A stretch of 64,000 bases of DNA from an uncultured delta proteobacterium (GTDB lineage: Bacteria; Desulfobacterota; Binatia; Binatales; Binataceae). The stretch is taken from NCBI GenBank assembly GCA_963833025.1, contig CAWHWI010000001.1, positions 596,855 through 660,854 on the forward strand, in the 5' to 3' direction. The translations under genes and the position numbers were made by a program. Positions within the stretch are counted from its first letter, which is position 1. Every line of letters starts with the position of its first letter. Positions 4,178 to 62,819 of the stretch are shown one piece after another. The notes beneath the pieces were generated by a model, which was not told the DNA's origin, did no database searches, and worked only from the letters and a program-made list of their open reading frames with translations.

Positions 4178-4512
4178 AATCCCCCATCACCTCACGAAAT
4201 CCGGACCCAACGGATTTCATAACGGTCCCCTACAGTTGCCTCGGACGAGCCGGGTGAAATCTCTGATAGGCTGATGATCCAATTGCCGTGCCATTTCTTT
4301 GAGCTTGGATTCGAGTCGTGACATGACGAGGGACAACGTGCCTAGCCTCCGTATGATGTTGCGAATCTATTTGAAGCCCTCGATGACCCGCAAATCCCCG
4401 ATTTGGACGTTGAACATCGCTTCCGCCCCGCAATCCCCGCCGAACCATCCCTGCAATCAATCTCCCGCAACGGCCTGCTTGTGGCAATTGTGCTACACGC
4501 GTTGCTGACACT

Positions 4513-7395: not shown

Positions 7396-8499
7396 TCAAT
7401 ACGCGCCGAGTGCCGCGACGCGCTCGCGATGGAACGCGGGTGAGCCGAAGTAGGACTCGTTGAAGCGCGCGCGCTTGAACCACAGATGCATATCGTGCTC
7501 CCAGGTGAAACCGATTCCACCGTGCATCAGAACCGCGCGGTCGGTGCCGCGGCTGTAGATATCGCACAGGCGCGCCTTCGCCATCGCCGCGGTGCGCGAC
7601 GCGTCGTCGGCCCCGATGTCCTGTGCATAGGCGGCGTACCAGAGCATCGCGCGCGCGGGCTCGAGGTCGGCGACGATTTCGGCGGCCGCATGCTTGAGTG
7701 CCTGGAACGATCCGATCGGCTTGCCGAACTGCTCGCGGACTTTCGAGTAATCGACGGCCATCTCGAGCGCGCGTTCGGTGCCGCCAAGCGAGTCAGCCGC
7801 GACGGCAACGGCAGCGACGTCGATCAGCTTTGCGAAAAGACCGGTGCCGCCGTGAAGCCGCTCGGCGGGAGCGCCCTTTAGCTCGACGCTCGACACGCGG
7901 CGCGTGAGGTCCAGGTTTTTCAGCGGACGAATCGTGACGCCCGGCGCTTTCGCGTCAACGACGAACAGAAAAATGTCAGAGTCATGTTTCGCCGCGACGA
8001 CGATGAAGTCGGCGACGTGGGCATACGGCACAAACATCTTGGCGCCGCTTAGATGCCACCCGGCGCCGCTCTTCATCGCTATCGCATTAATGTCGCGCGA
8101 ATCGACGCTGCCGGCGCTCTCGACCACCGCGACGGTGCCGATCGCTTTGCCCTCGGCGAGCGCGGTGAGCCACTTCGCCTTGAGCTGTTCGGAGCCGCTG
8201 AGCTTGAGCGCGCCCGCCGCGAGCACGGAGGAGAACAGGAACGGACCCGGCATCGCAGCGTAACCGCCCTCTTCCAGAATCATCGCCATCTCAAGCATCC
8301 CGAGTCCCGCGCCGCCGAATTTCTCGGACACGATCAGGCCGGTCCATCCGAGCTTCGCGATATGGTCGTAAAGTTCGCGCGGATAGCCGTCGTCAGTCGC
8401 CATAACTTTGCGTACGAACGTAGTCGGGCACTCGCCGTTCAGAAATGCGCGCCCGCTTTCCTTGAGCTGCTGTTGTTCTTCGCTTAGTCCGAAATCCAT
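7396..8499 (-). CDS. Acyl-CoA dehydrogenase family protein
   Basis: 367 aa; ACAD N/M/C domain architecture; C-terminal catalytic region. Confidence 0.85.
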   Translation of the reverse strand: MDFGLSEEQQQLKESGRAFLNGECPTTFVRKVMATDDGYPRELYDHIAKLGWTGLIVSEKFGGAGLGMLEMAMILEEGGYAAMPGPFLFSSVLAAGALKLSGSEQLKAKWLTALAEGKAIGTVAVVESAGSVDSRDINAIAMKSGAGWHLSGAKMFVPYAHVADFIVVAAKHDSDIFLFVVDAKAPGVTIRPLKNLDLTRRVSSVELKGAPAERLHGGTGLFAKLIDVAAVAVAADSLGGTERALEMAVDYSKVREQFGKPIGSFQALKHAAAEIVADLEPARAMLWYAAYAQDIGADDASRTAAMAKARLCDIYSRGTDRAVLMHGGIGFTWEHDMHLWFKRARFNESYFGSPAFHRERVAALGAY

Positions 8500-8558: not shown

Positions 8559-9746
8559 TCATCGCGATTTCGGCATTTTCATGCCGCGTTCTGCGATTAT
8601 GTTTTTCTGGATGTGCGACGTTCCGCCGCCGATCACCAGCCCCAGCGAGAACATCCACTCGTACGGCCAGTAGGCGTGATCGAGCGCGGCTTCGTCGTCG
8701 CGCGCGAGCATCGAGTAGTCGCCCAGCGCTTCCATCGCGGCGGTGGCGAGGTCGTGATTCAGCTCGGTGCCGACCAGCTTGTTGATCATCGCCTCGACGC
8801 CCGGGTTTTTGCCGCGAACATGATCGGTGAGCTGGCGCAGCGCGTGAAAGCGCATCGCCTCGACCCGGGTCTCCAGCTCGACGAGCCGCTGGCGGAAGAC
8901 AGGATCCTCGGTGAGCGGGCGTCCGCCGCGCGTGATCGATTTGGCCAGCGCCAGCAGGCGGTTGAAGCGTTGCTCGCTGCCGCTGGCGGAGCCGAGCATG
9001 TTGCGCTCGTGAAAGAGCGTGGCGTTGGCGACGATCCATCCTTCGTTGAGCTTGGCGACCAGGTTTTTGCGCGGCACGCGGACGTTGTCGAAGAAAACCT
9101 CGTTGAAGCCGCGATCGCCGGTCATCTGCACCAGCGGGCGCACGGTGATTCCGGGCGTGTGCATGTCGATGAGGATGTACGAGATGCCGCGATGCTTGGG
9201 CGCCTCGGGGTCGGTGCGCACCAGGCAGAACATCATGTCGGCGTATTGCGCGCCCGAGGTCCAGACTTTCTGCCCGTTGACGACGAACTCGTCGCCGACG
9301 ATTTCCGCGCGCGTTTTCAGCGACGCGAGGTCGGAGCCTGCGCCGGGCTCGGAATAGCCCTGACACCATATTTCTTCGGCGCTGAGAATTTTCGGCAGAT
9401 AACGCTGCTTCTGTTCCTCGCTGCCCCACGAGATGAGCGTCGGCCCGAGCATCCCGAGCCCCGACCCGCCGACGAGGTATGGCGCCTTCGCGCGCACCAT
9501 CTCGTCGTTGACGATCGATTGGCGCACCGGGTCCATCGCCTGCCCGCCGTATTCCTTCAGCCACGCGAGCGCGACGTAGCCGGCTTCGTACAAGCGGCGC
9601 TGCCATGCCTTGGCCCTGCCAAGCCAGGTTTTGTCGTCGCGACCTTCGCGATCGGCGGAGAGGCCGCTGGTCGCCATGTTCTCGGCGAGCCACTCGCGAA
9701 CCTTCAGGCGAAATGCTTCTTCCTCGGGCGTGAATTGAAGATCCAT
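8559..9746 (-). CDS. Acyl-CoA dehydrogenase family protein, in tandem with the previous one
   Basis: ACAD fold; the likely start is the internal Met (MDLQFTPEEEAF..) of the 428-aa track ORF. Confidence 0.85.
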   Translation of the reverse strand: MDLQFTPEEEAFRLKVREWLAENMATSGLSADREGRDDKTWLGRAKAWQRRLYEAGYVALAWLKEYGGQAMDPVRQSIVNDEMVRAKAPYLVGGSGLGMLGPTLISWGSEEQKQRYLPKILSAEEIWCQGYSEPGAGSDLASLKTRAEIVGDEFVVNGQKVWTSGAQYADMMFCLVRTDPEAPKHRGISYILIDMHTPGITVRPLVQMTGDRGFNEVFFDNVRVPRKNLVAKLNEGWIVANATLFHERNMLGSASGSEQRFNRLLALAKSITRGGRPLTEDPVFRQRLVELETRVEAMRFHALRQLTDHVRGKNPGVEAMINKLVGTELNHDLATAAMEALGDYSMLARDDEAALDHAYWPYEWMFSLGLVIGGGTSHIQKNIIAERGMKMPKSR

Positions 9747-33996: not shown

Positions 33997-34015
33997 ATCT
34001 TCTTGAAGGTAGTGG

Positions 34016-34588
34016 CTACAATTCTTCGAAAACAAATTGGTCGTTGGTGTAAACGCAGACTTCGGCCGCGATCTTCATCGCGCCTTCCGCGATCTGTCGC
34101 GCCGTCATCCCCGAGCCGTGGCGAATCAGCGCGCGCGCCGCCGACAACGCATAGTTGCCGCCCGATCCGATCGCGAGGATTCCATCGTCCGGCTCGAGCA
34201 CGTCGCCGACGCCCGAAATCAGCAGCGAGCTCTCCTTGTCCGCGACCACCAGCATCGCCTCGAGCCGCCGCAGGATTCGATCCGTGCGCCAGTCTTTGGC
34301 CAGCTCGACGGCCGCGCGCCGGAGCACTCCATTATATTCCTGCAGCTTCGATTCGAACTTGTCGAACAGCGTCAGCGCGTCCGCGGTCGAGCCCGCGAAG
34401 CCCGCCAGCACGCGATCCTGATGCAGCCGGCGCACTTTCTTCGCCTTGCTCTTCATGATCGTTTGTCCAACGGTCACCTGCCCGTCACCCGCGATAACCA
34501 CGTGCCCCTCGTGGCGCACGCTCAGAATCGTCGTGTGGCGAACTACAGCGCCCGGCTCAAGACCCCGCTCAGACTCGTGGGAAGGCAC
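34016..34588 (-). CDS. hslV: ATP-dependent protease subunit HslV (GTG start gives a 17-aa extension before the catalytic Thr)
   Basis: [21 protein letters not shown].. matches the HslV N-terminus; there is no ATG/GTG/TTG immediately before the Thr-Thr. Confidence 0.85.
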
Positions 34589-35483
34589 GTCGATAAACCT
34601 CTTTCAAATGATTCACGCTGACATGAGTATAGCGCTGCGTCGTCGCGAGGCTCGCATGGCCGAGCATCTCCTGTATCGACCTCAGGTCGGCCCCATTGCC
34701 CAGCATATGCGTCGCGAAACAGTGACGCAGCCCGTGCGGCGTTAGTCCCGCGCTCACGCCGGCCGCCTCCAGACGCCGCTGCAGGATCGTCTCGACGCTG
34801 CGCGTGGTCAGCCGTCCGCCGCGAAGATTCGTAATCACCGGACCGTTGTGCTCCCACGCAATCGGCATCGCGGTCTTCCACTTCTTCAACGCATCCAGCG
34901 CGGGCTCGCCGAGCGGCACCAGCCGATCCTTGTTGCCCTTGCCCGCCCGGATCATCACCATCCCGAGCTCTTCGTCGATATCGCGCCAGTCGAGCCCGAC
35001 CAGCTCGCCGACGCGCAGCCCCGACGAGTACAGCGTCTCGAATATCGCGCGATCGCGTATCGACGCCGGCGTCGACTCACCTGGCGACAGCGAGAACTCG
35101 ATCAGCCGACGAACCTCGTCCTCCTGCAATATCGACGGCAAGCGCCGCTCGTTCTTCGGCGAGCGAATCGATCGCGCCGGACTTGCCGCGCCAATCGTCG
35201 TCTCGCGGTAGCGAAAAAACGCCTTGATCGCGCTAAGTCGGCGCTGGACGGTGGCGCGGGCGGCTTTGTTCTTCATCAATTCGGCCAGGTAGCTGCGGAT
35301 ATGATCCGCCGTGATACTCGCAACGTCGATCTCGTCCACTCTTCTGCCGACGATCGCCGCCCGCTCGAGCAAAAAACTTCGGAACGCGAGCAGGTCGCGG
35401 CGATAGTTCGTCACCGTGTTGTCCGCCGCGCGCGACGCCTTCCTCAGCGCCGCCGCAAACGCCTCGACCTCCACCTCCATCGT
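34569..35483 (-). CDS. xerC: Tyrosine recombinase XerC/XerD family
   Basis: Catalytic R..HxxR..Y residues ([21 protein letters not shown]); start taken at MEVEVEAF. Confidence 0.8.
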
Positions 35484-35610
35484 CTCGCGCGCACCCACTT
35501 GAGCGGCTATGCTATCAGCGGCGATTCGCCCGAAAAAGCGTGCATTCCCAAGCCGTTCGCATTCCAGTCCCGCGGAGCACCATGCCGCACGAAGAAACCC
35601 GGCCTGCGTT

Positions 35611-35916
35611 ATGAACTGCTGGCATTGCGCCCGAAAGATCGAAGTCGTCACCGGCGAACGAGTCGGTTTTCGCGACGAGTGCCCCGGATGCGGCCGCGCG
35701 CTCCACTCATGTCGCAACTGCGGCTTTTACGATCCGTCCTACAACAACAGTTGCCGCGAGCCGATGGCGGAGCGGGTGGTCGATAAGGAACGATTCAATT
35801 TCTGCGAATATTTTATCCCGGGCGACGCGGCTGCCAGGCCGCCAGCAAAAACAAAAGCAAAAACAACAACTGGCGCCCAAAAAGAGCTGGAGGCTCTCTT
35901 CAAGAAAAAATCATGA
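35611..35916 (+). CDS. Small zinc-ribbon protein (four CxxC pairs)
   Basis: MNCWHC..CPGC..CRNC..C pattern; Lys-rich C-terminus. Confidence 0.55.
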   Translation: MNCWHCARKIEVVTGERVGFRDECPGCGRALHSCRNCGFYDPSYNNSCREPMAERVVDKERFNFCEYFIPGDAAARPPAKTKAKTTTGAQKELEALFKKKS

Positions 35917-36341
35917 CCTCGCGCCGACTCCAGTTTCGTGACCGATGCGTCGAGCTTCTATTCATCGCGGCGTTCGCTTCGACAGTCGCCACCGGATGCC
36001 ATCCGGCCAACAGCGCGCGCGGGGTCGTCGATCGCTTCATCGACCAATATTATGTAGCGATCGATCTGAAGGCGGCCGAGCCATTCTGCACCGGCCTCGC
36101 ACTCGACAAACTGCATAAGGAAATGCAGCTGATCGGCAATCAGAAAATCGACGCGAACACCCGCAAGCCCGTCGTGCATTACAAGCTCACTGCCGAGCGC
36201 GACGGCACCGACCATATCGAATTCCTGTTTCGCGCTACCATCGACGTGCCCGAAGGCGGCACCTTCAACCGCAACTGGCTGATAACCGCGCGCAAGGACG
36301 CCGACACGTGGAAAGTCTCGAACTTCGATGACTACGAATAG
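35913..36341 (+). CDS. Lipoprotein, hypothetical
   Basis: Signal peptide with lipobox ATGC; 4-nt overlap with the upstream gene. Confidence 0.55.
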   Translation: MTSRRLQFRDRCVELLFIAAFASTVATGCHPANSARGVVDRFIDQYYVAIDLKAAEPFCTGLALDKLHKEMQLIGNQKIDANTRKPVVHYKLTAERDGTDHIEFLFRATIDVPEGGTFNRNWLITARKDADTWKVSNFDDYE

Positions 36342-37764
36342 CGTCGCCGCGATCATCCTCGCCGCCGGCAAGGGAACCCGGATGCGCTCGAAGCGCGCCA
36401 AGGTCCTGCACGAGCTAGGCGGCGAACCGATGATCGCGCGCGCAGTTCGCGCCGTCGCGGCACTCGAACCAGATCCAATCGTGATCGTCGTCGGCCACCA
36501 GGCTCGCGAGGTCGAAGCCGCCGTAACTTCATCGAAGGCGCGATTCGCTTTCCAGGAGCCGCAGCGCGGCACCGGCGACGCCGCGCGATGCGCCCTCGCG
36601 CAGCTTCCCGCAAACTTCACCGGCGACGTGCTGATCACTTATGGCGACATGCCCGCGATCACGTCGGCGACGCTGCGCGCGTTCCTCGACGCACATCGAA
36701 AGCGCGGCGCCAAACTCTCGTTCATCAGTATTGTTCTCGACGACCCCGCGGCATACGGCCGCGTCATTCGCGATACGTCCGGCAACGTCGATAAAATCGT
36801 CGAGTTCCGCGACGCGTCGCCCACCGAACGCGCCGTCAAGGAAATCAACACCGGCTTTTACGTCGTCGATAGCGCCCTGCTGCGCTCCGCGCTCGCGGAA
36901 CTGAAACCGTCCAACGCGCAGGATGAGTACTATCTGACCGATATCGTCGCGATTGCGCGTGCGCGCAGTGAAAACGAAAAAGTTGAAGCGTGGGTTGCTA
37001 CCGACCCGGCGGAATTCGCCGGTATCAACTCGCGCGAGGAGCTGGCAAATATGGAAGCCGAAGTTCGTGCCACCGTTAACCGAAAGCTGATGGCGTCCGG
37101 CGTGACGCTCGTCGATCCCGCATCCGCCTACATCTCGGAGCAGGCCGAAATCGCGCCCGATTGCGTAATCGGTCCCAACGTCCAGATTTTCGGCGCCTGC
37201 AAGCTCGGCGAGGGCGTGCGAATCGACGGCACCGCGTGGCTCAGCAACGTGACGATTGGCCCGCGATGCCATCTGAAGCTCGGCGTGCGCGCCGAAGATT
37301 GCTCAATCGGCGAGGAATCCGAAATCGGCCCGTTCGCCAACTTGCGCGCCGGCACCGAACTCGCCGGCCACAATCGCATCGGCAATTTCGTCGAGACCAA
37401 AAAGGCGCGCATCGGACGCGGCACCAAGGCCAGCCACCTGAGCTACCTCGGCGACACCACCATCGGCGCCGACACCAACATCGGATGCGGCGTCATCACC
37501 GTGAACTACGACGGCTACGACAAGCATCACACGGAAATAGGCGACCGCTGCATGGTCGGATGCGACACGCAACTCGTCGCGCCAATCAAGGTCGGCAGCG
37601 ACGTGTACGTCGCGTCAGGCACGACGATTATTCGCGAGGTGCCCGACGGTGCGCTAGTGATGTCGCATCATCCGCAACGCGAAAAGGCCGGCTGGATGGC
37701 AACCTGGCGCAAACGCCACAACGACACCCCCGACGGCACCCTGCGGCGCAAAAAGGATCACTAA
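36328..37764 (+). CDS. glmU: Bifunctional UDP-N-acetylglucosamine pyrophosphorylase / glucosamine-1-phosphate N-acetyltransferase
   Basis: AIILAAGKGTRM N-terminus; left-handed beta-helix hexapeptide repeats at the C-terminus. Confidence 0.9.
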   Translation: MTTNSVAAIILAAGKGTRMRSKRAKVLHELGGEPMIARAVRAVAALEPDPIVIVVGHQAREVEAAVTSSKARFAFQEPQRGTGDAARCALAQLPANFTGDVLITYGDMPAITSATLRAFLDAHRKRGAKLSFISIVLDDPAAYGRVIRDTSGNVDKIVEFRDASPTERAVKEINTGFYVVDSALLRSALAELKPSNAQDEYYLTDIVAIARARSENEKVEAWVATDPAEFAGINSREELANMEAEVRATVNRKLMASGVTLVDPASAYISEQAEIAPDCVIGPNVQIFGACKLGEGVRIDGTAWLSNVTIGPRCHLKLGVRAEDCSIGEESEIGPFANLRAGTELAGHNRIGNFVETKKARIGRGTKASHLSYLGDTTIGADTNIGCGVITVNYDGYDKHHTEIGDRCMVGCDTQLVAPIKVGSDVYVASGTTIIREVPDGALVMSHHPQREKAGWMATWRKRHNDTPDGTLRRKKDH

Positions 37765-37864
37765 GTCTGTTGTCATCCTGACGAACCGTCGCTTGTACTC
37801 GCTCAACCGAGCGAGAATAATCATCACAACGAGGTGACGGTCGAGGCGATAGAAAACAAAGTGC

Positions 37865-38045
37865 GAGAGTAGCGCCAGGACTCATGGCCGCATCTGGCCA
37901 TGAGTTGACGAGGTGGAAGCAGCATCGAAAGATTCGGCGGATGGCTTCCCGGCTCCACGGTCGATAGAGGCGAGAGTGAAACCGCGCGGGTGACCGCGCG
38001 ACAAAACGCGCCTCGAGTGGCAGAGCATCCGGCTCTGATGTGATT
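37865..38045 (+). ncRNA. glmS ribozyme: glmS ribozyme (GlcN6P-responsive self-cleaving riboswitch) in the glmS 5' UTR
   Basis: AGCGCCAGGACU..UUGACGAGG..AUCGAA..UUCGGCGGAUGGCUUCCCGGCU matches the conserved core. The P1 hairpin is ACUCAUGGCC/GGCCAUGAGU. The P2 pairing GGAAGC/GCUUCC covaries relative to Bacillus GGAGG/CCUCC. Confidence 0.8.
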
Positions 38046-38148
38046 TCCTAAACTCTCCTCCAAAAGTCATTTCGCTATCGCTCCGTCCGTGTGGGTTCGG
38101 ACAACTCCGTAACCTTCCCTGCAAATCAGGGGAAAGGAGCGAACGCTC

Positions 38149-39978
38149 ATGTGCGGAATAATTGGATACGTCGGGCCGAGCGAGGCCTACCCGATCCTGC
38201 TCGAAGGGCTCAGCCGCCTCGAATATCGCGGCTACGATTCGGCGGGCATCGCAACTCTATCCGACAACAAGCTCGAAATTCGGCGCGCCAAAGGCAAGCT
38301 CGAGAACTTGCGCCACCTGTTGGCCGACTCCCCCCTTAAAGGCCGCATCGGAATCGGGCACACGCGATGGGCGACGCACGGCCGCCCGTCCGAGGAAAAC
38401 GCGCATCCGCACCAGGCCGGCCCGGTCGCGGTCATCCACAACGGCATCGTCGAGAACTTCATCGATCTGCGCACCGAGCTGCTCGCGCGCGGCCACAAAC
38501 TCCGCTCCGAGACCGACACCGAGCTGATCTCGCACCTTATCGAGGAGAAGCTCAAAGGCGGCCGCGGTCTCGCCGAGGCCGTGCGCGAGGCCGTCCTGCG
38601 GCTCCGCGGTTCGTTCTCAATAGTCGTGCTGTCGGAGACCGAGCCAGACAAATTGGTCGCCGCCAAGACCGCGACGCCGCTGGTGCTGGGGCTTGGCGAC
38701 GGCGAGAATTTCGTCGCCTCGGATATTCCCGCGATTCTCGAGCACACGCGCCGCGCGATTGTCCTCGAAGACGGCGAGCTGGCCGAGGTCACCGCGGCCA
38801 CGGCGCGCATCATGAAGTTCGACGGCACCGCAGTCACTCGCGCGCCGCGTCAAGTTGAATGGGATGCCGTCGCGGCCACCAAGGGCGGCTTCCGCCACTA
38901 CCTGCGCAAGGAAATCAACGATCAGCCGCAGGCGTGGATCGACACGATGGCCGGACGCGCGGACGCCGGCTCACCTATCGTGCGTTTCGAAGGCGAGCTG
39001 CTGCCGGCGGGCGGTCCCGCGTCGATCGGGCGAATCGTGATGCTCGGTGCGGGCGCCTCATGGATCACTGCGCAGGTCGCCAAGTTCATGATCGAGGAGC
39101 TCGCCGGGATTCCGGTCGAGGTCGATTACTCATCCGAGTTCCGCTATCGACGCCCGCCAATCGACGGCCGCACGATGATCATAGCCGTGTCGCAGTCGGG
39201 CGAGACCGCCGACACGATCGCTGCGATGGAAGAGGGCCGCGCGCGCGGTGCGCATCTGCTGGCGATCACCAACACCGTGGACTCGTCGATCGCGCGCAAG
39301 GCCGACGCGCAGTTGTACACGCGATGCGGTCCCGAGACCAGCGTGACAACCACCAAGTGCTTTCTCACGCAGCTCGAGGCTTACTATCTGTTCGCGATTC
39401 ACCTGGCGGCGCGGATGGGCCGTCTTTCAGGCTCCGATTCCGGGAAATTGTTGCAGCCGGCGTTCGCGATTCCCGGACAGATCAAAACTATCTTCGAGAG
39501 CGAGCCGAACATTCAGCAGATCGCGCGCAAGTACGCGCAGGCGCGCGACTTCCTGTTCCTCGGCCGCGGCATCAACTACCCAATCGCGCTCGAGGGGGCG
39601 CTCAAGCTTAAGGAAATTTCCTACATCCACGCCGAAGGTTACTCCGCAGGCGAGATGAAGCATGGGCCGATCGCGCTAATCGACGACAAGATGCCGGTGG
39701 TCGTGATAATTCCCAACGACGAGCTGTTCGACAAGTCGATGTCGAATCTGAAGGAAGTCGAATCGCGCAACGGCCGCATCATAGCAGTCACCAATCACGC
39801 AACCGCCGAGTTGAAAAGCGTAGCCGCGGAAATTATCGAGGTGCCGGAGACTAACCACATGTTAACGCCGGTACTGATGACAGTCCCACTACAACTGCTC
39901 GCCTACCACATAGCAGTGGAACGAGGCACCGATGTCGACCAACCGCGCAACCTCGCAAAGTCGGTAACTGTCGAGTAG
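38149..39978 (+). CDS. glmS: Glutamine--fructose-6-phosphate aminotransferase
   Basis: MCGIIGYVG N-terminal nucleophile; two SIS domains; ends ..NLAKSVTVE. Confidence 0.95.
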   Translation: MCGIIGYVGPSEAYPILLEGLSRLEYRGYDSAGIATLSDNKLEIRRAKGKLENLRHLLADSPLKGRIGIGHTRWATHGRPSEENAHPHQAGPVAVIHNGIVENFIDLRTELLARGHKLRSETDTELISHLIEEKLKGGRGLAEAVREAVLRLRGSFSIVVLSETEPDKLVAAKTATPLVLGLGDGENFVASDIPAILEHTRRAIVLEDGELAEVTAATARIMKFDGTAVTRAPRQVEWDAVAATKGGFRHYLRKEINDQPQAWIDTMAGRADAGSPIVRFEGELLPAGGPASIGRIVMLGAGASWITAQVAKFMIEELAGIPVEVDYSSEFRYRRPPIDGRTMIIAVSQSGETADTIAAMEEGRARGAHLLAITNTVDSSIARKADAQLYTRCGPETSVTTTKCFLTQLEAYYLFAIHLAARMGRLSGSDSGKLLQPAFAIPGQIKTIFESEPNIQQIARKYAQARDFLFLGRGINYPIALEGALKLKEISYIHAEGYSAGEMKHGPIALIDDKMPVVVIIPNDELFDKSMSNLKEVESRNGRIIAVTNHATAELKSVAAEIIEVPETNHMLTPVLMTVPLQLLAYHIAVERGTDVDQPRNLAKSVTVE

Positions 39979-40038
39979 CGCAAGGCGGACGGCTGCTGCC
40001 CGCATAGCTCGTCGAGCAGCTCCTTCGCGCCTTTAGGG

Positions 40039-40078
40039 GGCGCAGACAGCGCCGGTAGTCACACCGGCGCTGTCCGCC
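40039..40078. terminator. Strong hairpin between convergent genes glmS (+) and a hypothetical gene (-)
   Basis: ggcgcagacagcgccgg / ccggcgctgtccgcc 15-17 bp stem with an 8-nt loop. Confidence 0.5.
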
Positions 40079-40121
40079 CTAGATTTGCCGTTAAGCGATA
40101 CGGCGTAAGACGCGTGCCTTA

Positions 40122-40442
40122 CTAGCCGATCGGCTGCTCTTCGTACATCGCGGTACTGACCAGGTCGGCGGCCGGTTCGCGGTCGCCCTCAAGCTCCGCC
40201 AAAAACGCGCGCCACTCGGGATCGGCGCCGAGTTTTGCGGCGTACTCTCCGAAGCTCTTGTAGTTCGCGGTTTCGATTCCGATCGCGATCGTCCCCGGCT
40301 CACCGCCAGTAGCGGTGTTCCACTGTCGGACCTTGCCGCCATCGCGGTGTACAATCCTGGTGCCCTTGACCACGTTTTTCATGAAACTCTGAAGCTTTCC
40401 GGGTCGCGGGCGGTAGACGAACACTTGTAGAATTGTCGACAT
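40122..40442 (-). CDS. Hypothetical protein (106 aa) inside the glmS-downstream insert
   Basis: Complete ORF with high-GC codon usage; no family recognised. Confidence 0.5.
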   Translation of the reverse strand: MSTILQVFVYRPRPGKLQSFMKNVVKGTRIVHRDGGKVRQWNTATGGEPGTIAIGIETANYKSFGEYAAKLGADPEWRAFLAELEGDREPAADLVSTAMYEEQPIG

Positions 40443-40656
40443 GGCACAATCTCCCGCCTCAAGCCATCATGTGGCTTGAAGCAATATGAATAGACGATGG
40501 GGTTGGTTCAGCGGGACGGGCGTCGCAGGGCGCGCAGTCGGGCCAGGCTCAAGTCGGACTCAATCCTTATATCGATCCCGACGCTCTGACCCTTTGCTTA
40601 ATCGGCGCCGAAGTCAAGTCACAGGAATCGGAGTTGTGTCCACGTCAAGATGTTCT

Positions 40657-40722
40657 GCACGAGACCGCGGCACCGACATAGGCCAAGCGCGCAACCTCGC
40701 CAAGTCAGTGACTGTCGAGTAG
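40657..40722 (+). repeat. Diverged direct repeat of the glmS 3' end (last ~18 codons plus stop), including synonymous substitutions
   Basis: 46/54 nt identical to 39925-39978; translates to ..GTDIGQARNLAKSVTVE* against the GlmS C-terminus ..GTDVDQPRNLAKSVTVE*. Confidence 0.6.
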
Positions 40723-40735
40723 GACGACTTAAGTC

Positions 40736-41464
40736 CTAGTCCAATAGTTTGCCGAATCTGTTCCAGCGCAGTGGTAACACTCCTGGAGCGTCGTGATCCC
40801 ATGAGAAGTAGATCACTGACGCGCGCCCTTCGACGTCGTTCTCGTCGGCGAAACCCCAGAAGCGGCTGTCGAAGCTGTCGTCGCGGTTGTCGCCCATCAT
40901 GAAAAGCCTTCCGGGCGGCACTACCACCGGCCCCGGATCGAGTTCCGGATGACGCGGATCTCGCGGCGGAAAATTGTCAGCCGCTGAGAACGGTGAGCGA
41001 GCCGCCTCGCGCGGAGCGAAGTACGCATGCGGATCCGGCACTCGCGCGCCGTTGCGCCATACGACGCCGTCGATCACCTGGATCCGGTCGCCCGGCAGGC
41101 CGATCACGCGCTTGATCAGGTCGACGCCGCGCTCGCGCGGAGACTCGAACACGAGAATATCGCCGTGATGTACCGGCGCCAGGTGTATCAGGTACTTCCC
41201 GGTCGACAGCCTCGGCACCGGCAGGCCCGCGATCGTATCCGGGATGCGCAGGCCGTATGCGAGCTTGTTGACGAAAATATGGTCGCCCACCAGGATGGTC
41301 GGCTCCATCGACCCCGACGGAATCACGTAGGCCTGCACGAAAGACGAACGCATGACTATCGCGAGTATCAGCGCGATGCCGAGCGACTCGGCATACTGCC
41401 GCGCAGTCGACTTAGGCGGGCGTTGTTTTGGACTCATCATCGATTGCTCCTCGAGATTGTCCAC
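40736..41464 (-). CDS. lepB: Signal peptidase I
   Basis: SGSMEPTL (catalytic Ser), GDNRDDSFDSRFWG box E; N-terminal TM anchor. Confidence 0.85.
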   Translation of the reverse strand: MDNLEEQSMMSPKQRPPKSTARQYAESLGIALILAIVMRSSFVQAYVIPSGSMEPTILVGDHIFVNKLAYGLRIPDTIAGLPVPRLSTGKYLIHLAPVHHGDILVFESPRERGVDLIKRVIGLPGDRIQVIDGVVWRNGARVPDPHAYFAPREAARSPFSAADNFPPRDPRHPELDPGPVVVPPGRLFMMGDNRDDSFDSRFWGFADENDVEGRASVIYFSWDHDAPGVLPLRWNRFGKLLD

Positions 41465-41512
41465 TATGGCGCTGTAATCGTCGAGAGTGGGAGACCCCAG
41501 GCGGGAATCCCG

Positions 41513-57617: not shown

Positions 57618-57733
57618 AGTCAGTAGCCTCGCGAAAATAGACTTTTGCGGGACTATACAACGGACGCTCGAAGGCGGGAACCCGAATTCGGGGCATGTTG
57701 CGCTGCGATCAGGCCGCATGTAGGAATTTGCTG

Positions 57734-59125
57734 ATGCGATTTTGTCCGCAATGTGGCGCGCCGCTGATGGCCGGAGCGAAGTTCTGCGTGGACTGCGGCT
57801 GCGCGCTGGCCACTCCAGCGTCGGGCGCAGGCGAGGCGGGCGGCTTCAGGGGCGGCGCGAACATCGGACGTAACAAGATTACGACGGCGTTCGTGTTCGT
57901 GTTCGCCGCGATCACCGTGGTGGGTCTGGGGGCCGCCGCGTGGATAATGATGCGGACGCCCGACGTGGTGCGCGAGCAACTCGCCGTCGCACCGCCGGTC
58001 GCAATCGCTCCCAGCGCCGCTCCCGCGTCGAATCCAGCCAATGCCGCGCCGCCCGCGGCTGCGCCGGACCAGAACGCCGCGGCGGAGGGAAGTCAGAACG
58101 GCGGCTTGCCGCCGGGACATCCCACCGTCGAGCTCCCGACAGAGGCTCGCACGTTTATCGACAAGATCGAAAAAGAAGCTCTCGCAAAGCCCCGCGACGC
58201 CGGCGCCTGGGACAAGCTGGGCACGGTTTCGATGCGCGCCGCGATGTTCGATCAAACCTACTACGCCAAGGCCGAGGACGCGTACGGCCACGTGCTCAAG
58301 TTGGAGCCTGACAACCTCGAAGCGCTCCGTGGCATCGGCGATATCGACTACGACAAGCAGCATTACGACGAAGCGGTGGCGGCATACGAGCACTATCTGA
58401 AGAAGAAACCGGACGATCCGGAAGTTCGCACCGACCTCGGCACGATGTATCTCTACACGGGCAACGCCGATCAGGCGGTGGTGCAGTACAAGAAGGCGAT
58501 CGCCGCCAAGCCCGGATTTTTCCAGGCGTACTACAACATGGGAATCGCGTACGCGCAGGAAAATAAACCCGATGACGCGGACGCGACCCTCAAGCAGGCG
58601 ATGGCGCTAGCGCCTGACGATAATGCGCGGGACAGGGTGAAGGAGCTGATCGCAAAACTCAGCGGTGCGCCCACTCCGACCGCGTCGATACAGGCAGCGT
58701 CCGCAGCGACTCCCGCCGGATTGGCAGCCGCGAAGAGTTCAGGGGCGGCGGCGAAGAGTCCAGCTGCGGCGGCGGGCTCTCCCGCAGCGTCAGCGGCGCT
58801 CGCCGCGCAGGCATCCGGATCGCCGGCAGCCTCGCCAACGGCTGGAGCACAGGATTTTCACGGCGCTATCGAGCAGATGGTGCGTGGGCTGCCGATCGCA
58901 GGACCAAAGGTCGGCTCCGTCGAGTGGCCAGACAAGCTCAAGGCGCGGGTCTTGATGGACAACTTTCCGATGGATGAAATGCCGCCGTTTGCAAAAACCA
59001 AGTTCCTGACCGACTTGAAGGCCGGAATCGACAGCGCCAAGAAAGACAACAACATTTCATCGCCGGTCGAGCTCAATATCGTTGACGGCGCAAGCGGCCG
59101 CGTGATGGAAACCATTACTCAGTAG
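57734..59125 (+). CDS. Zinc-ribbon / single-TM / TPR-repeat protein
   Basis: MRFCPQCGAPL..CVDCGC zinc ribbon, one TM helix, Ala/Pro-rich spacer, 4-5 TPR repeats; ends ..GRVMETITQ*. Confidence 0.65.
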   Translation: MRFCPQCGAPLMAGAKFCVDCGCALATPASGAGEAGGFRGGANIGRNKITTAFVFVFAAITVVGLGAAAWIMMRTPDVVREQLAVAPPVAIAPSAAPASNPANAAPPAAAPDQNAAAEGSQNGGLPPGHPTVELPTEARTFIDKIEKEALAKPRDAGAWDKLGTVSMRAAMFDQTYYAKAEDAYGHVLKLEPDNLEALRGIGDIDYDKQHYDEAVAAYEHYLKKKPDDPEVRTDLGTMYLYTGNADQAVVQYKKAIAAKPGFFQAYYNMGIAYAQENKPDDADATLKQAMALAPDDNARDRVKELIAKLSGAPTPTASIQAASAATPAGLAAAKSSGAAAKSPAAAAGSPAASAALAAQASGSPAASPTAGAQDFHGAIEQMVRGLPIAGPKVGSVEWPDKLKARVLMDNFPMDEMPPFAKTKFLTDLKAGIDSAKKDNNISSPVELNIVDGASGRVMETITQ

Positions 59126-59126
59126 C
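59097..59126 (+). repeat. 30-bp direct repeat, copy 1 (3' end and stop codon of the TPR gene)
   Basis: gccgcgtgatggaaaccattactcagtagc; 28/30 identical to 62754-62783. Confidence 0.6.
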
Positions 59127-59224
59127 CAGCCGCGCCATCCGACCGCCGCAACGCTCAATCGTCGATAGCGGTCGATCGTCGCATTCAAGCGATAAAGCTG
59201 GCCCGGCCAAAATAATGGTCAAGC

Positions 59225-59271
59225 GCGGGACTCGAACCCGCATGGAGGTTGCCCTCGCGAGAATTTTAAGT
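59225..59271 (-). repeat. Partial copy of tRNA-Leu(UAA), anticodon loop through T-stem only (attL-like tRNA fragment)
   Basis: 43/47 identical to the corresponding part of the full tRNA at 62466-62551; no matching 5' acceptor/D-arm upstream. Confidence 0.6.
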
Positions 59272-59486
59272 GCGCTTCAGATGATCTAGAATCGCTGATT
59301 AGCCGAGTCGGGCTACATAGGGAGTCCGTTAGGTTACTTGGAGAAGAAATTTTGAGAAATTCACGCTTCGATGAAAACTTTGCTTGTAATAAACCATCTA
59401 AGTGTGATTAAACGACGGGTGGCAATCGGCGGCTCGTAGTGAAGGCACCGTTCTGACCGCTGCCAAGTGGGGAGGGACTGTGCCGT

Positions 59487-62423
59487 ATGCGCCGTATCGC
59501 GGTTGCCGTCTGGTCGCTTGCGCTCGCCCTGGTTACGCTCGGTTTTAGTGTACCTGCCGCTGCGGCCGGGCTGACGGTCACCGCCAGCGTTGCGTTCGGC
59601 AACGTGGACTTCGGCGTTACCGGTGCGACCAGCGCTAGCAAGAGCGTCAGGATAACCAATCCTCTCACCGGCCAGCCGGTTACAGGATTGAGTGTTCAGA
59701 TCACCGGTGCGGACGCCAGCGAGTTTGCAATCAGCAGCAACGGATGCACGTCAACGCTGGCCAAAGACACCAACTGCACGGTGATGCTGACCTTCACGCC
59801 CGCCGCGCTTGGCACACGCAACGCATCGCTGGCGGTCAGCGATACAGCGAACGCGAATGCCGGGTCGGCCGCTCTAAGCGGCGTCGGTGTCCCGGGCAAG
59901 CTTACGATCACTCCCCTGACCTCGAACTTCAGCAATATAGTTGTTGGAGCTACCAGCGCTGCAAAGACGACTACGCTTAAGAATCTCACCGGCGCGACTC
60001 TCCACATCGACAGCGTGGCGCCGTCGGGAGACTTCTCGAAGGCGAGCGACGGATGCAGCGGCAACGATCTGGTGCCGAGCGCGATCTGCGCAATCACCGC
60101 GACCTTCAGTCCCACCCAGACAGGTGCTCTCAGCGGAAACATGAGTATTACCGACGACGCGGCGAGCAGCCCCCAGTCGGTCACGCTTGAAGGGACCGGA
60201 ATACTGGCGAAGCCGACGTTCTCGTCGCCCTCGATTTCGTTCGGCAGGGTGCGGGTAGGCACTACGTCGGAGCCGACTAGCATCACGCTGTTCAACCCCA
60301 ACGTCCTGGCTATGCAAATTACGTCGATCACCACGAGCGGACCGTTCGCGGCAAATGGTGCCGCATGCGGCTCGCAGATTGGGGCGGGCGGAAACTGTCA
60401 AATCTCGATTACGTTCGATCCGACCAGCGACCCTACTCAGACAGGCACATCCGAGACCGGCAAACTGATCGTCGCCGACAACGCGACCGGGAGCCCGCAG
60501 ACCTTGAGTCTCAGCGGTGTAGCATTCGGCATCGCGCCGTCACCAACACCCACAGCAACCGCGACCGCAACTGCCACTGCCACAGCGACCGCGACCGCAA
60601 CTGCCACTGCCACAGCGACCCCAACTGCAACCGCGACCCCTTCGGTCGCGATTATCGGAACGGTGGAGGGTGGGCTTGGCCCCGTCTCAGGCGCTACGGT
60701 GACGCTCTATGCGGCGGGCACGGCTTACGGCTCGGGTGCTACAAGCTTGGGCAGCACAACCACATACGATGGCTACTTCATCCTGCCTTACACTCCGCCG
60801 GCCGCGCCCACAGTACTCTATCTGGTCGCGCTCGGAGGTAATGCCGGGTCCGGGAGCAACTCGGCGATCGGTTTGATGGGAGTGTTGGGGATGTCCAATG
60901 CCCTGCCTCAAGGGCTGCTCACGATCGACGAATTTACTACCGTGGCCGCCGAGTGGGCGCTGGCGCAGTTCATCGACTCGACGGGCCAGATCATCGGGGC
61001 GCCATCGAGCAACGCGACCGGCTTTGTCAATGCGGTCAACCAGTTGCAGGCTGATCTCGTCGATATCTCGACGGGCGAGCCAACGAGTTTCTGGAGCACT
61101 CAGCTCTCCGGTGACGGCCTGCAGCGGATGGTTACGATTGCGAACATCCTGGCGGCGTGCGTGGAGAGTTCCGGATCGTCGTCGAGCGCATGCACCACGC
61201 TGGTGAGCGGCGTCGGCACCACGTTGACGGCGGCGCATATGATGGCGACCGAACCGTCCGCGAACGTAGCTGCGTTTTTCGCTCTTCAGGGCGCGTCTCC
61301 GCCCTTTGCTGACGGTCTGAGCACCCAGCCCGACGGCTTTGAGATCGCGCTCGGTTTGGGTTATGACCCTGATCCCTCATCATTTAGCGGCTCCTTTTTC
61401 GACGGCCCCCAATTTCTGGCAATCGACGCCGCCGGCAACGTCTGGGTGACGAACACTGGTATGACCTTTGGTAACGACATCAGCGTGACCGAGTTGACCC
61501 CCAGCGGCGGCTTCATCTTCAACAACATCAACACCAGCGGCGCAAACTTCGACTTCCCGCAGGGCGTGGCAATCGACGCTGTCGGCAACGTCTGGGTGGC
61601 GAACTACGATGGCAACAGCGTGACTGTGTTGCCGCCCGGCTGCACCCCCACCGAATTCGGAGGTTGCACAGCCGGCAACTTCAACAACTCGTTAATCAGC
61701 AGCGCCAACTTCAACGGGCCGGTCGCAGTGGCAATCGACGCCGCCGGCAACGTCTGGGTGGCGAATAACGGCGGCAACAGCGTGACCGAATTGATCTCCA
61801 GAGTCGAATGGGCGGCGGCCCTCTATTTCGGTTTCGACAACTTCGACGGCCCGGCCGGCGTGGCAATCGACGCCGCCAGCAACGTCTGGGTGACGAATGA
61901 ATTGGGCGACAGCGTGAGCGAGGCCTCCGGCGGCGTTTTCGACTTCAACTTCACGAACAACTTCTTCGACGCAAACTTCGACTTCCCGCAGGGCGTGGCA
62001 ATCGACCCCGCCGGCAACGTCTGGGTGACGAACAACGCTGGCAACAGCGTGACCGAGTTTACCTCCAGCGACTTTTTCTTGCCCTTCACCAACGACGACA
62101 CCACCGGCGCCAACTTCGACGGCCCGGCCAGCGTGGCAATCGACGCCGCCGGCAACGTCTGGGTGACGAACAACCTTGGCAACAGCGTGACTGAGTTGCC
62201 GGCCGGCTGCTTCCCTGGAAGTTGCACAGCCAACAACTGGGGCGCCAGCGGCGCCAACTTCAAGGGGCCGGGCGGCGTGGCAATCGACGCCTCCGGCAAC
62301 GTCTGGGTGGCGAACAAGGACAGCGACACCGTGACCGAGATCTTGGGCGTGGCGCGCCCGGTCCTGACGCCGCAGGTCGCCTGTCTTAAGAAAACGCCGC
62401 CGCAAGCCGTCTGTCTGCCGTAG
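59487..62423 (+). CDS. Secreted protein (978 aa): signal peptide, three choice-of-anchor-D domains, Thr/Ala/Pro linker, central domain, six NHL-type beta-propeller repeats
   Basis: Repeated GVAIDAAGNVWVxNxxGNSVTE units; N-terminal domains with the G.V..G..S..K...I.N.G...L.I..C..L....C.V.F.P pattern. Confidence 0.85.
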   Translation: MRRIAVAVWSLALALVTLGFSVPAAAAGLTVTASVAFGNVDFGVTGATSASKSVRITNPLTGQPVTGLSVQITGADASEFAISSNGCTSTLAKDTNCTVMLTFTPAALGTRNASLAVSDTANANAGSAALSGVGVPGKLTITPLTSNFSNIVVGATSAAKTTTLKNLTGATLHIDSVAPSGDFSKASDGCSGNDLVPSAICAITATFSPTQTGALSGNMSITDDAASSPQSVTLEGTGILAKPTFSSPSISFGRVRVGTTSEPTSITLFNPNVLAMQITSITTSGPFAANGAACGSQIGAGGNCQISITFDPTSDPTQTGTSETGKLIVADNATGSPQTLSLSGVAFGIAPSPTPTATATATATATATATATATATATPTATATPSVAIIGTVEGGLGPVSGATVTLYAAGTAYGSGATSLGSTTTYDGYFILPYTPPAAPTVLYLVALGGNAGSGSNSAIGLMGVLGMSNALPQGLLTIDEFTTVAAEWALAQFIDSTGQIIGAPSSNATGFVNAVNQLQADLVDISTGEPTSFWSTQLSGDGLQRMVTIANILAACVESSGSSSSACTTLVSGVGTTLTAAHMMATEPSANVAAFFALQGASPPFADGLSTQPDGFEIALGLGYDPDPSSFSGSFFDGPQFLAIDAAGNVWVTNTGMTFGNDISVTELTPSGGFIFNNINTSGANFDFPQGVAIDAVGNVWVANYDGNSVTVLPPGCTPTEFGGCTAGNFNNSLISSANFNGPVAVAIDAAGNVWVANNGGNSVTELISRVEWAAALYFGFDNFDGPAGVAIDAASNVWVTNELGDSVSEASGGVFDFNFTNNFFDANFDFPQGVAIDPAGNVWVTNNAGNSVTEFTSSDFFLPFTNDDTTGANFDGPASVAIDAAGNVWVTNNLGNSVTELPAGCFPGSCTANNWGASGANFKGPGGVAIDASGNVWVANKDSDTVTEILGVARPVLTPQVACLKKTPPQAVCLP
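60561..60620 (+). repeat. Perfect 30-bp tandem duplication (gcgaccgcaactgccactgccacagcgacc x2) inside the Thr/Ala linker coding region
   Basis: Exact repeat read directly from the sequence. Confidence 0.8.
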
Positions 62424-62465: not shown

Positions 62466-62551
62466 TGCCGGGGGGCGGGACTCGAACCCGCACGGAGGTC
62501 GCCCTCCTGAGAATTTTAAGTCCTCTGCATATACCATTTCACCACCCCGGC
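62466..62551 (-). tRNA. tRNA-Leu(UAA): tRNA-Leu (anticodon UAA), class II with long variable arm
   Basis: Reverse complement reads GCCGGGGUGGUGAAAUGGUA..GAGGA-CUUAAAA-UUCUC..GCGGGUUCGAGUCCCGC.., close to E. coli tRNA-Leu(UAA); CCA not encoded. Confidence 0.8.
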
Positions 62552-62753: not shown

Positions 62754-62783
62754 GCCGCGTGATGGGAGCCATTACTCAGTAGC
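62754..62783 (+). repeat. 30-bp direct repeat, copy 2 (reads ..ARVMGAITQ* in frame, a relic of a TPR-gene-like 3' end)
   Basis: gccgcgtgatgggagccattactcagtagc. Confidence 0.6.
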
Positions 62784-62819
62784 TAATTGCGCGAATAGCC
62801 AGTCGCGCGATGGAGTCAG

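Follow-up and report, generated by a model that had tools for sequence, protein, structure and literature searches.

Two glmS 3′ ends around a single-gene insert

We analysed a 64-kb stretch of contig CAWHWI010000001.1 (the window, to which all coordinates refer unless stated otherwise) from Candidatus Binatus (Binataceae, Binatota), an uncultured soil bacterium, and focused on the region just downstream of the gene glmS. Here, an insert of ~680 bases (39982-40661) that carries one gene, the cargo gene, and no recombination gene is bracketed by a duplicated glmS 3′ end, whose copies are referred to as tail 1 and tail 2. The gene order across the locus is xerC-like, a 142-amino-acid (aa) open reading frame (ORF), glmU, glmS, the 106-aa ORF of the insert, lepB and a gene for a 1805-aa beta-propeller protein. 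Loci in related genomes are designated by L numbers. The features of the locus are:

34569-35717, minus strand: xerC-like gene, belonging to the syntenic xerC-hslVU cluster
36328-37764, plus strand: glmU
38149-39978, plus strand: glmS, the target gene, 609 aa (Pfam SIS, GATase_6/7)
39919-39978, plus strand: tail 1, the working glmS 3′ end and left repeat copy, including TAG (repeat search)
39979-40041, minus strand: 13-nucleotide (nt) spacer, then GCTG, then a decayed 3′-end relic of an AAA_16/TPR adenylate/guanylate cyclase gene on the reverse strand, brought in with the cassette (alignment to L086)
40042-40077, minus strand: conserved stem-loop 3′ of the 106-aa gene (inverted-repeat search)
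40122-40442, minus strand: cargo gene, 106 aa, predicted NIPSNAP fold (Pfam, AlphaFold2, Foldseek)
40443-40648, minus strand: conserved leader of the cargo gene (13-sequence alignment)
40649-40662: end of the cassette, junction between spacer and glmS-tail copy (same junction in L086, L091 and L092)
40663-40722, plus strand: tail 2, the non-functional glmS 3′-end copy and right repeat copy, including TAG (repeat search)
40723-40735: 13-nt spacer with the palindrome GACTTAAGTC; together with lepB, the right flank of the insertion site
40736-41464, minus strand: lepB, signal peptidase I, convergent with glmS (Pfam Peptidase_S26)

The last 60 nt of glmS (39919-39978) are found again at 40663-40722 with 50 of 60 positions identical (83%) and 744 nt from start to start, which extends the 54-nt recurrence (46/54) reported in the initial annotation. 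Both copies terminate in TAG; the true glmS end translates to ..ERGTDVDQPRNLAKSVTVE and tail 2 to ..DRGTDIGQARNLAKSVTVE. A degenerate 35-nt pattern of the tail matched the window twice, at the two tails, and gave no match in 100 dinucleotide-preserving shuffles of the sequence, so that within the window the repeat is not a common one, a case that the initial annotation had named as contrary to an inserted element. Even a permissive tblastn search (E ≤ 5) returned only GlmS residues 589-609 as duplicated, at 40657-40719, and gave no glmS homology upstream of tail 2 beyond the last ~21-25 codons.

In order to characterize the divergence of the two tails, the window was compared with L105, a related genome with the same arrangement. 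Tail 1 differs between them at six sites, all of them synonymous, whereas four of the five differing sites of tail 2 are nonsynonymous and fall at invariant GlmS residues (V to I, D to G and P to A in the window; G to S in L105). Because these changes hit invariant residues after the window and L105 had split, tail 2 is a decaying relic. In the reconstructed common ancestor of the two, tail 1 and tail 2 are separated by five fixed differences, all synonymous, and the ancestral tail 2 would encode a perfect GlmS C-terminus. Since the divergence is almost all synonymous, and a copy that had been non-coding from birth would look different, the tails most likely descend from two distinct functional glmS genes, of which one was resident and the other imported. 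The initial annotation had noted that several differences are synonymous and had proposed an element that brings a replacement end; the comparison agrees, with the addition that tail 2 is now decaying.

The same data bear on a duplication made in situ at the time of insertion, whether staggered breaks left a long target-site duplication or replication switched templates, in which case the two tails would have been identical at birth. The flanking repeats that we found around different cargos vary in length (37, 60, 71 and 78 nt) and the 78-nt repeat of L003 is perfect, as such a duplication would allow. However, all five ancestral differences are synonymous even though tail 2 has evolved neutrally since, and the corresponding repeat at a second locus, L086, has accumulated 7-9 differences with no amino acid change and with its stop codon kept, where a copy without coding function from the outset should gather nonsynonymous changes. 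We consider this origin very unlikely.

Empty and occupied sites in related genomes

The contexts of lepB homologues were used to find empty and occupied sites. The window GlmS shares 92-95% aa identity with that of 11 Candidatus Binatus metagenome-assembled genomes (MAGs) and 68-79% with that of other Binataceae. Synteny between the window and 11 close relatives stops at the glmS stop codon (window 39978-39988); in all 11 both the 106-aa gene and lepB are absent within 6 kb of glmS, and their downstream regions have no match anywhere in the window.

The comparison of glmS-lepB loci that the initial annotation had proposed revealed an empty site in the related genome L107, whose lepB is 90% identical. 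In L107, a gap of 13 nt separates the convergent genes glmS and lepB, and there is only one tail and one glmS. Window segments 34000-39981 and 40662-41483 both align to L107, the latter with 88% identity, and share an overlap of 64 nt there, which corresponds to the tail; the sequence absent from L107 is window 39982-40661, plus one extra tail. The site is occupied in the window, in L105 (93-94% nt identity, on a 972-kb contig) and in L108 (99.9%), a short-read contig from another sample. The arrangement in the window is a true insertion, and an assembly artefact is excluded because L105 and L108, which are independent assemblies, share its structure. The 13-nt spacer between glmS and lepB (40723-40735) reads GACGACTTAAGTC in the window and L105 and CGCGGCGCGGGTA in the empty site of L107.

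Together with an artefact of assembly, a decayed tandem glmS duplicate and a Tn7-like remnant at attTn7 form a set of explanations to which we assign next to no probability, although glmS is the classic Tn7 attachment region and glmS paralogues occur in some bacteria. Three independent assemblies (window, L105 and L108) carry the structure; no second glmS paralogue is left in the sequence, as only the last 21-25 codons are doubled and the relatives, including L107, have one glmS. With respect to Tn7, the insertion site lies inside the coding tail and not ~25 bp downstream of the stop codon, and there are no tns genes, no 5-bp duplication and no terminal inverted repeats.

The cassette and its cargo gene

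As the initial annotation had stated, a hairpin and a 106-aa ORF on the opposite strand lie between the two tails. The arms of the hairpin (40042-40056 and 40063-40077) are 15 nt long and 93% complementary with a 6-nt loop, and the hairpin follows the cargo gene in nearly all related loci. It is probably a terminator, though it has no T-run and was not called by a simple terminator scan.

The 106-aa ORF has a coding-like profile of GC content at third codon positions, and its product has 32 homologues with 57-90% identity, nearly all of them 106 aa long. The ratio of nonsynonymous to synonymous substitution rates is 0.06-0.27, and the gene is under purifying selection. A match to the Pfam family NIPSNAP (PF07978; E = 0.004, 17.7 bits) lies below the 22.3-bit cut-off, and two of the homologues carry a precomputed PF07978 match. 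The AlphaFold2 model, with a predicted local distance difference test score of 85, has the order β-α-β-β-α-α-β, and in a Foldseek search the top 15 PDB matches of the model are NIPSNAP proteins with template-modelling (TM) scores of 0.63-0.70, the best being 1vqy (TM 0.69-0.70). The cargo protein is thus predicted to adopt a NIPSNAP fold of the dimeric alpha/beta-barrel type (ferredoxin-like beta-alpha-beta). No homologue was found in IMG/VR viral contigs or PLSDB plasmids.

The cargo gene is preceded by a leader of ~200 nt that contains an invariant TTGACT (~40612-40617) and a conserved stem-loop block; its 3′ part holds a hairpin (~40456-40482) just before the ribosome-binding site, and GGGAGA at 40450-40455. 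In an alignment of 13 sequences (A3) the mean column identity of the leader is 76%, with many invariant columns. The leader block is given here for reference: GTCGGGATCGATATARGGATCGAGTCCGACTTGAG. An 85-nt block of the leader (40546-40631, minus strand) is more conserved than the coding sequence across the 13 loci and contains GTCGGGATCGATATAAGGATCGAGTCCGAC together with two GACTTGA repeats separated by ~70 nt; the block may act as a promoter/operator or as a 5′ RNA element. Judged from its conservation, TTGACT may be the -35 element of the cargo promoter, and a consensus promoter scan called no promoter for this gene. The predicted stems of the leader are conserved, but compensatory change was seen in only 1 of 31 pairs, and nothing indicates a riboswitch. 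An Rfam scan of 39800-40900 at E ≤ 10 gave two chance-level matches only.

Across ~20 loci the cargo gene keeps both its leader and its hairpin. Homology to the window starts sharply at 40617-40638 (in more than ten contexts) and stops at ~40039, and the cassette is present in at least 11 unrelated gene contexts with boundaries that are sharp and conserved. It is thus a compact expression unit, ~600 nt long, with a history of repeated relocation. With these boundaries, the suggestion of the initial annotation that the insert is what remains of a mostly deleted larger element is without support.

The same cassette at a cyclase gene end

The cassette is also found away from glmS. In L086/L091, a segment matching window 40722 to 40039 (693 nt, 83.5%) comprises the hairpin, the gene, the leader, the spacer and the glmS-tail copy, and no glmS is present within 6 kb of the cassette. 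The cassette lies just downstream of a gene for a 949-aa adenylate/guanylate cyclase-AAA_16-TPR protein, between 71-nt direct repeats (90% identical) of the cyclase 3′ end, each with its stop codon (TGA in one, TAG in the other) plus the next four bases. The order in L086 is cyclase tail, stop codon, CAGC, 13 nt and glmS-tail relic (reverse strand), followed by spacer, leader, gene, hairpin and second cyclase tail. The two cyclase tails of L086 show 7-9 nt differences, and the relic translates to a sequence 100% identical to the last 21 cyclase residues. L092, a 1-kb contig that ends inside the cassette gene, contains the upstream half of this arrangement.

The insert in the window in turn holds a relic of an adenylate/guanylate cyclase 3′ end. 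Window 39918-40034 aligns with L086 5780-5664 (73% over 120 nt), which consists of the glmS-tail relic, 13 nt, GCTG and the real cyclase tail. The junction, with ctgcac on one side and g(a/g)(g/a)(c)cgcggcacc on the other, is common to the window and L086, and the homology of L109 ends at the same point. One repeat period of the window (744 nt) and one of L086 (788 nt) are collinear once the latter is rotated, such that positions 121-731 of the former correspond to 19-624 of the latter and positions 1-116 to 645-760. The window and L086 arrangements are circular permutations of one unit. This unit contains the cassette and the convergent ends of glmS and a cyclase gene. The initial annotation had offered a minimal non-autonomous cassette as a second option beside a deleted element, and this option fits best, since the cassette occurs elsewhere, together with its glmS-tail relic, between duplicates of another gene end.

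In other contexts, L100 has a cyclase-tail relic after the hairpin, and in L098/L099 the cassette is flanked by a 37-nt repeat that is the 5′ end of a neighbouring gene. Significant flanking repeats were found only in window/L105, L086/L091 and L098/L099. We also observed the cassette repeatedly beside DZR-cyclase-AAA_16-TPR genes or beside relics of their conserved tail ..FDTADLKEAKALLEEL, even where no repeat is detectable (cyclase side at L086 2853-5702, L090 1682-7517, L088 852-3095, L100 ~4420-4520 and L081 ~5570-5590).

A model for integration and its alternatives

We propose that an imported non-autonomous cassette of ~0.7 kb entered the chromosome at the glmS 3′ end, and that it did so by recombination inside the copy of the glmS tail that it brought along, an explanation that we regard as moderately probable. 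The incoming molecule would have been a circle in which the cassette is joined to the glmS tail, followed by 13 nt, GCTG and the cyclase tail. One crossover between the glmS-tail segment of the circle and a chromosomal glmS tail of the L107 type would produce the order of the window, namely glmS, tail 1, cyclase-tail relic, hairpin, gene, leader, tail 2 and lepB, in which glmS would stay intact and one tail become a relic. One crossover between the cyclase-tail segment of the same circle and a cyclase gene would produce the L086/L091 arrangement, with the glmS-tail relic inside. The insertion with its empty site, the duplicated tail, the circular permutation, the synonymous divergence of the repeats, the later decay of tail 2 and the lack of a recombinase in cis are observed, whereas the circular intermediate and the position of the crossover inside the tail are the two parts of this scheme that we infer.

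The crossover could be carried out by host homologous recombination acting on 60-70 nt of conserved coding sequence, or by an unlinked site-specific recombinase acting in trans. Two observations speak for homology-driven recombination and against a single site-specific enzyme: three unrelated repeats bracket the cassette, and the cassette is a minimal expression unit and not a decayed larger element. A trans-acting integrase is kept in play because independent glmS-tail relics begin at similar positions.

The role of an integrase defines the most substantial alternative, which is that the insert is what a tyrosine-integrase element specific for the glmS 3′ end left behind, or a satellite of such an element, with the integrase lost or supplied in trans as in a CIME-like element. 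The phage-side attachment site (attP) of such an element would hold the replacement glmS tail, and the crossover would take place at the 5′ edge of the identity block. Direct repeats that reach exactly to the stop codon, the empty site and the synonymous divergence of the repeats all agree with it. The starting points of the relics also hint at a preferred site, at about -60 in the window and L086, about -57 to -63 upstream in L003 and -78 downstream in L003; there, the glmS-tail repeat of 78 nt is perfect, encloses an islet of 1.26 kb with two genes and looks recent. There are precedents in e14 with icd and icdC (PMC13626634) and in cis-mobilizable elements (CIMEs; PMC5704250).

The search for a recombinase points in the other direction. 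Genes for an integrase, a transposase or Tn7 functions are absent from the insert, where Pfam scans of the window genes gave none, and from the surroundings of all related loci, and in more than 40 loci no recombinase is present within 4-6 kb of glmS or the cassette except the syntenic XerC; tblastn with the XerC-like protein likewise recovered only the syntenic xerC-hslVU copy at glmS and cassette loci. No integrase was found elsewhere in the 64-kb window, the syntenic XerC apart, and neither the 29 Binataceae glmS loci nor the more than 20 loci of the cassette yielded a parent element. Furthermore, the cassette is bracketed by a glmS tail, a cyclase tail or the 5′ end of another gene, with no apparent common core, which argues against one site-specific enzyme, as it would not be expected to tolerate such variety, and its boundaries fit a minimal expression unit and not a decayed larger element. 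We regard an integrase-derived remnant as unlikely. The initial annotation had envisaged an integrative element that brings its own replacement 3′ end and had proposed to look for copies of the cargo gene next to tyrosine recombinases; the insertion and the duplicated tail are upheld, whereas the integrase part is not supported: in more than 20 loci no tyrosine recombinase is linked to the cassette, and the one such gene that was found is XerC-like and belongs to the syntenic xerC-hslVU cluster.

A further possibility dispenses with the circle and invokes a linear donor fragment that recombined by a double homologous crossover, with the glmS body as left arm and the 60-nt tail relic as right arm; the donor would already have had the cassette between two copies of the junction of glmS tail and cyclase tail. 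The junction of spacer and glmS tail does pre-exist in L086/L092. In addition, the window/L105 glmS differs from that of L107 by 20% over the last ~200-210 nt and by 7% just upstream. An imported glmS 3′ tract of ~200 nt was considered on this basis and dropped, as a three-way site-pattern test and a breakpoint scan were not significant, because both the window and the L107 lineages diverge in this region of glmS. The donor structure that is needed was seen in no locus, and a linear fragment alone leaves the L086 arrangement unexplained. We judge this route to be quite improbable.

Several observations weigh against integration of a circle through its glmS tail. No circular form or junction read has been observed for the intermediate, and the donor arrangement, in which glmS would be convergent with an AAA_16/TPR cyclase gene 17 nt away, is present in none of the 29 Binataceae glmS loci. 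RecA-mediated recombination is inefficient on 60-70 nt at 85-90% identity. The 13-nt spacer differs strongly between L107 and window/L105 although the flanks are 88-90% identical, which implies that the empty and occupied sites are not linked by a single simple step. Nine other cassette contexts have no flanking repeats. Finally, the 60-nt tail does not display a clean mosaic of native alleles on the left and imported alleles on the right, and comparison of its alleles with L107 and with the relics of L086/L092 left undecided which tail is resident and which is imported; in both cases the informative sites are few and homoplastic.

On a wider scale, Binatia may harbour a class of single-gene cassettes, each running from promoter to terminator and without a recombinase, that move as sub-kb circles and enter conserved gene ends through short gene-end segments captured at earlier insertion sites, with a working replacement end swapped in each time and relics of past targets, such as the glmS tail, the cyclase tail and the 5′ end of another gene, accumulating. 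We put this forward as a rather speculative generalization that is unlikely to hold. If true, mobility would be achieved by captured homology and not by a dedicated attachment site and integrase. It could also help explain the variable gene content 3′ of glmS, and possibly the nested repeats of a tRNA-Leu and a TPR-gene tail at 59.1-62.8 kb of the window.

Gene content downstream of glmS and related repeats

The initial annotation referred to the glmS 3′ region as an attachment hot spot, and in agreement with this the gene content just downstream of glmS varies among Binatus genomes. In L008 there is nothing between glmS and a conserved CDP-alcohol phosphatidyltransferase block. A prolyl oligopeptidase gene is found 3′ of glmS in L004, L009, L023 and L028, a cyclase-TPR gene in L001, a luciferase-like oxidoreductase gene in L005 and L007, lepB alone in L107, and the cassette with lepB in the window, L105 and L108.

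The lepB gene beside glmS is apparently an accessory paralogue. Its homologues split into a group with 73-100% identity and a group with ~55-62%, the latter likewise from Binatus/Binataceae. Most close relatives have no lepB at this position, and in L107 lepB alone stands between glmS and the conserved downstream block; lepB may itself be a single-gene insertion at the glmS hot spot. The genes that flank the insert include, besides lepB, those for the giant beta-propeller protein, an SDR protein, IscA, QueG and others.

Inspection of the related loci revealed further repeats around glmS. The Binataceae MAG L003 has three glmS tails, at 2864-2926, 7752-7829 and 9094-9171. The real tail and its perfect 78-nt copy 1.26 kb downstream enclose two lipoprotein genes (PEGA and Lipoprotein_16), and a degenerate glmS-tail relic directly after glmU, with its native downstream flank, opens a low-GC islet of 2.7 kb between glmU and glmS. 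This restriction-modification islet encodes an HTH controller-like protein, a 182-aa ORF, an N6_N4 DNA methylase and a SnoaL-like protein. In L002, a 100-nt direct repeat (89%; 3405-3504 and 7925-8024) is located just after glmU and ~95 nt after the glmS stop codon, and encloses a 2.2-kb insert and the whole of glmS. Across Binatus genomes, glmU and glmS are separated by as little as 0.37 kb and as much as 3.2 kb.

Elsewhere in the window, the 3′ end of a TPR/zinc-ribbon gene (57695-59125), including its stop codon, is part of a 39-nt repeat (85%; 59097-59135 and 62754-62792), and a 58-nt partial copy (86%; 59225-59282 and 62475-62532) of tRNA-Leu(taa) (62466-62551) is also present. The two repeats are nested and bracket a gene for a 978-aa NHL/ASH-repeat protein (59487-62423), with no integrase nearby.

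Comparison with known systems

The papers checked that mention Binatota or Binatia contain nothing on mobile elements. The attachment site of Tn7, attTn7, is located downstream of glmS and is marked by the conserved 3′ coding end of the gene, which is the same chromosomal neighbourhood as that of the insert in the window. Tn7, however, enters beyond the stop codon, creates a 5-bp duplication and has TnsB-binding ends and tnsABC(D/E); the insert shares none of these features, and no inverted repeat joining the insert ends was present in the inverted-repeat list. An integron cassette was also considered and rejected, as the insert has a simple 15-bp stem instead of an attC site, with no integrase nearby and no relevant Rfam match.

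Single crossovers of the Campbell type resemble the proposed scheme more closely, in that the homologous segment is duplicated around the insert and two such segments give permuted products. Integration of this type is known mostly from laboratory constructs (suicide plasmids) and from large episomes, such as the formation of high-frequency recombination (Hfr) strains through shared insertion sequences. We know of no described class of natural single-gene circles of 0.7-0.8 kb that use captured gene ends of 60-70 nt. Tycheposons, the tRNA-flanked islands of Prochlorococcus described by Hackl and colleagues in 2023, reportedly include integrase-less cargo between repeated partial 3′ ends of the target, and are said to use tRNA and tmRNA genes as targets and to have identifiable integrase-bearing relatives. 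The targets of the cassette are, in contrast, the ends of protein-coding genes, with no integrase-bearing relative known.

The closest likeness is found in the 3′ end of icd, where e14 or phage 21 leaves an intact gene and a displaced C-terminal pseudogene, icdC, that differs mainly at synonymous positions (PMC13626634). As in the window, the 3′ end of a conserved gene hosts the element, a second copy of that end keeps the gene intact, and the displaced copy persists. The 3′-end direct repeats and the empty site of this type are both found at glmS, whereas the internal recombinase is not: e14 is a 15-kb prophage with its own integrase and SOS-induced excision, and the insert measures 0.68 kb, carries a single cargo gene and lacks a recombinase. 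A further difference from e14 is that in other genomes the cassette occupies the end of a second gene that is unrelated to the first. CIMEs are decayed remnants of integrative and conjugative or integrative and mobilizable elements that keep both attachment sites, attL and attR, and have no genes for integration or transfer (PMC5704250). The insert is similar in that it consists of flanking tail repeats and a single cargo gene with no mobility genes. CIMEs are, however, defined by an integrase-bearing ancestor and its attachment sites, whereas the cassette is flanked by different gene ends in different genomes and no parent has been found.

Even on a conservative reading, the data document a glmS insertion hot spot in Binatota with both empty and occupied alleles, and provide a simple signature by which more cases can be found, namely a diverged, codon-preserving duplicate of a gene end. 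If the proposed scheme is true, small accessory genes could spread among the genomes of an uncultured soil phylum with no dedicated mobility gene, and pipelines that seek integrases or transposases would miss such units. Many prophages and islands with an integrase gene are known to integrate at a gene 3′ end and to supply a replacement end; here the same footprint is seen with a 0.7-kb unit of cargo only, and this unit recurs in circularly permuted form at the end of a second, unrelated gene. Taken together, the feature is real, and its best explanation is a non-autonomous integrative cassette.

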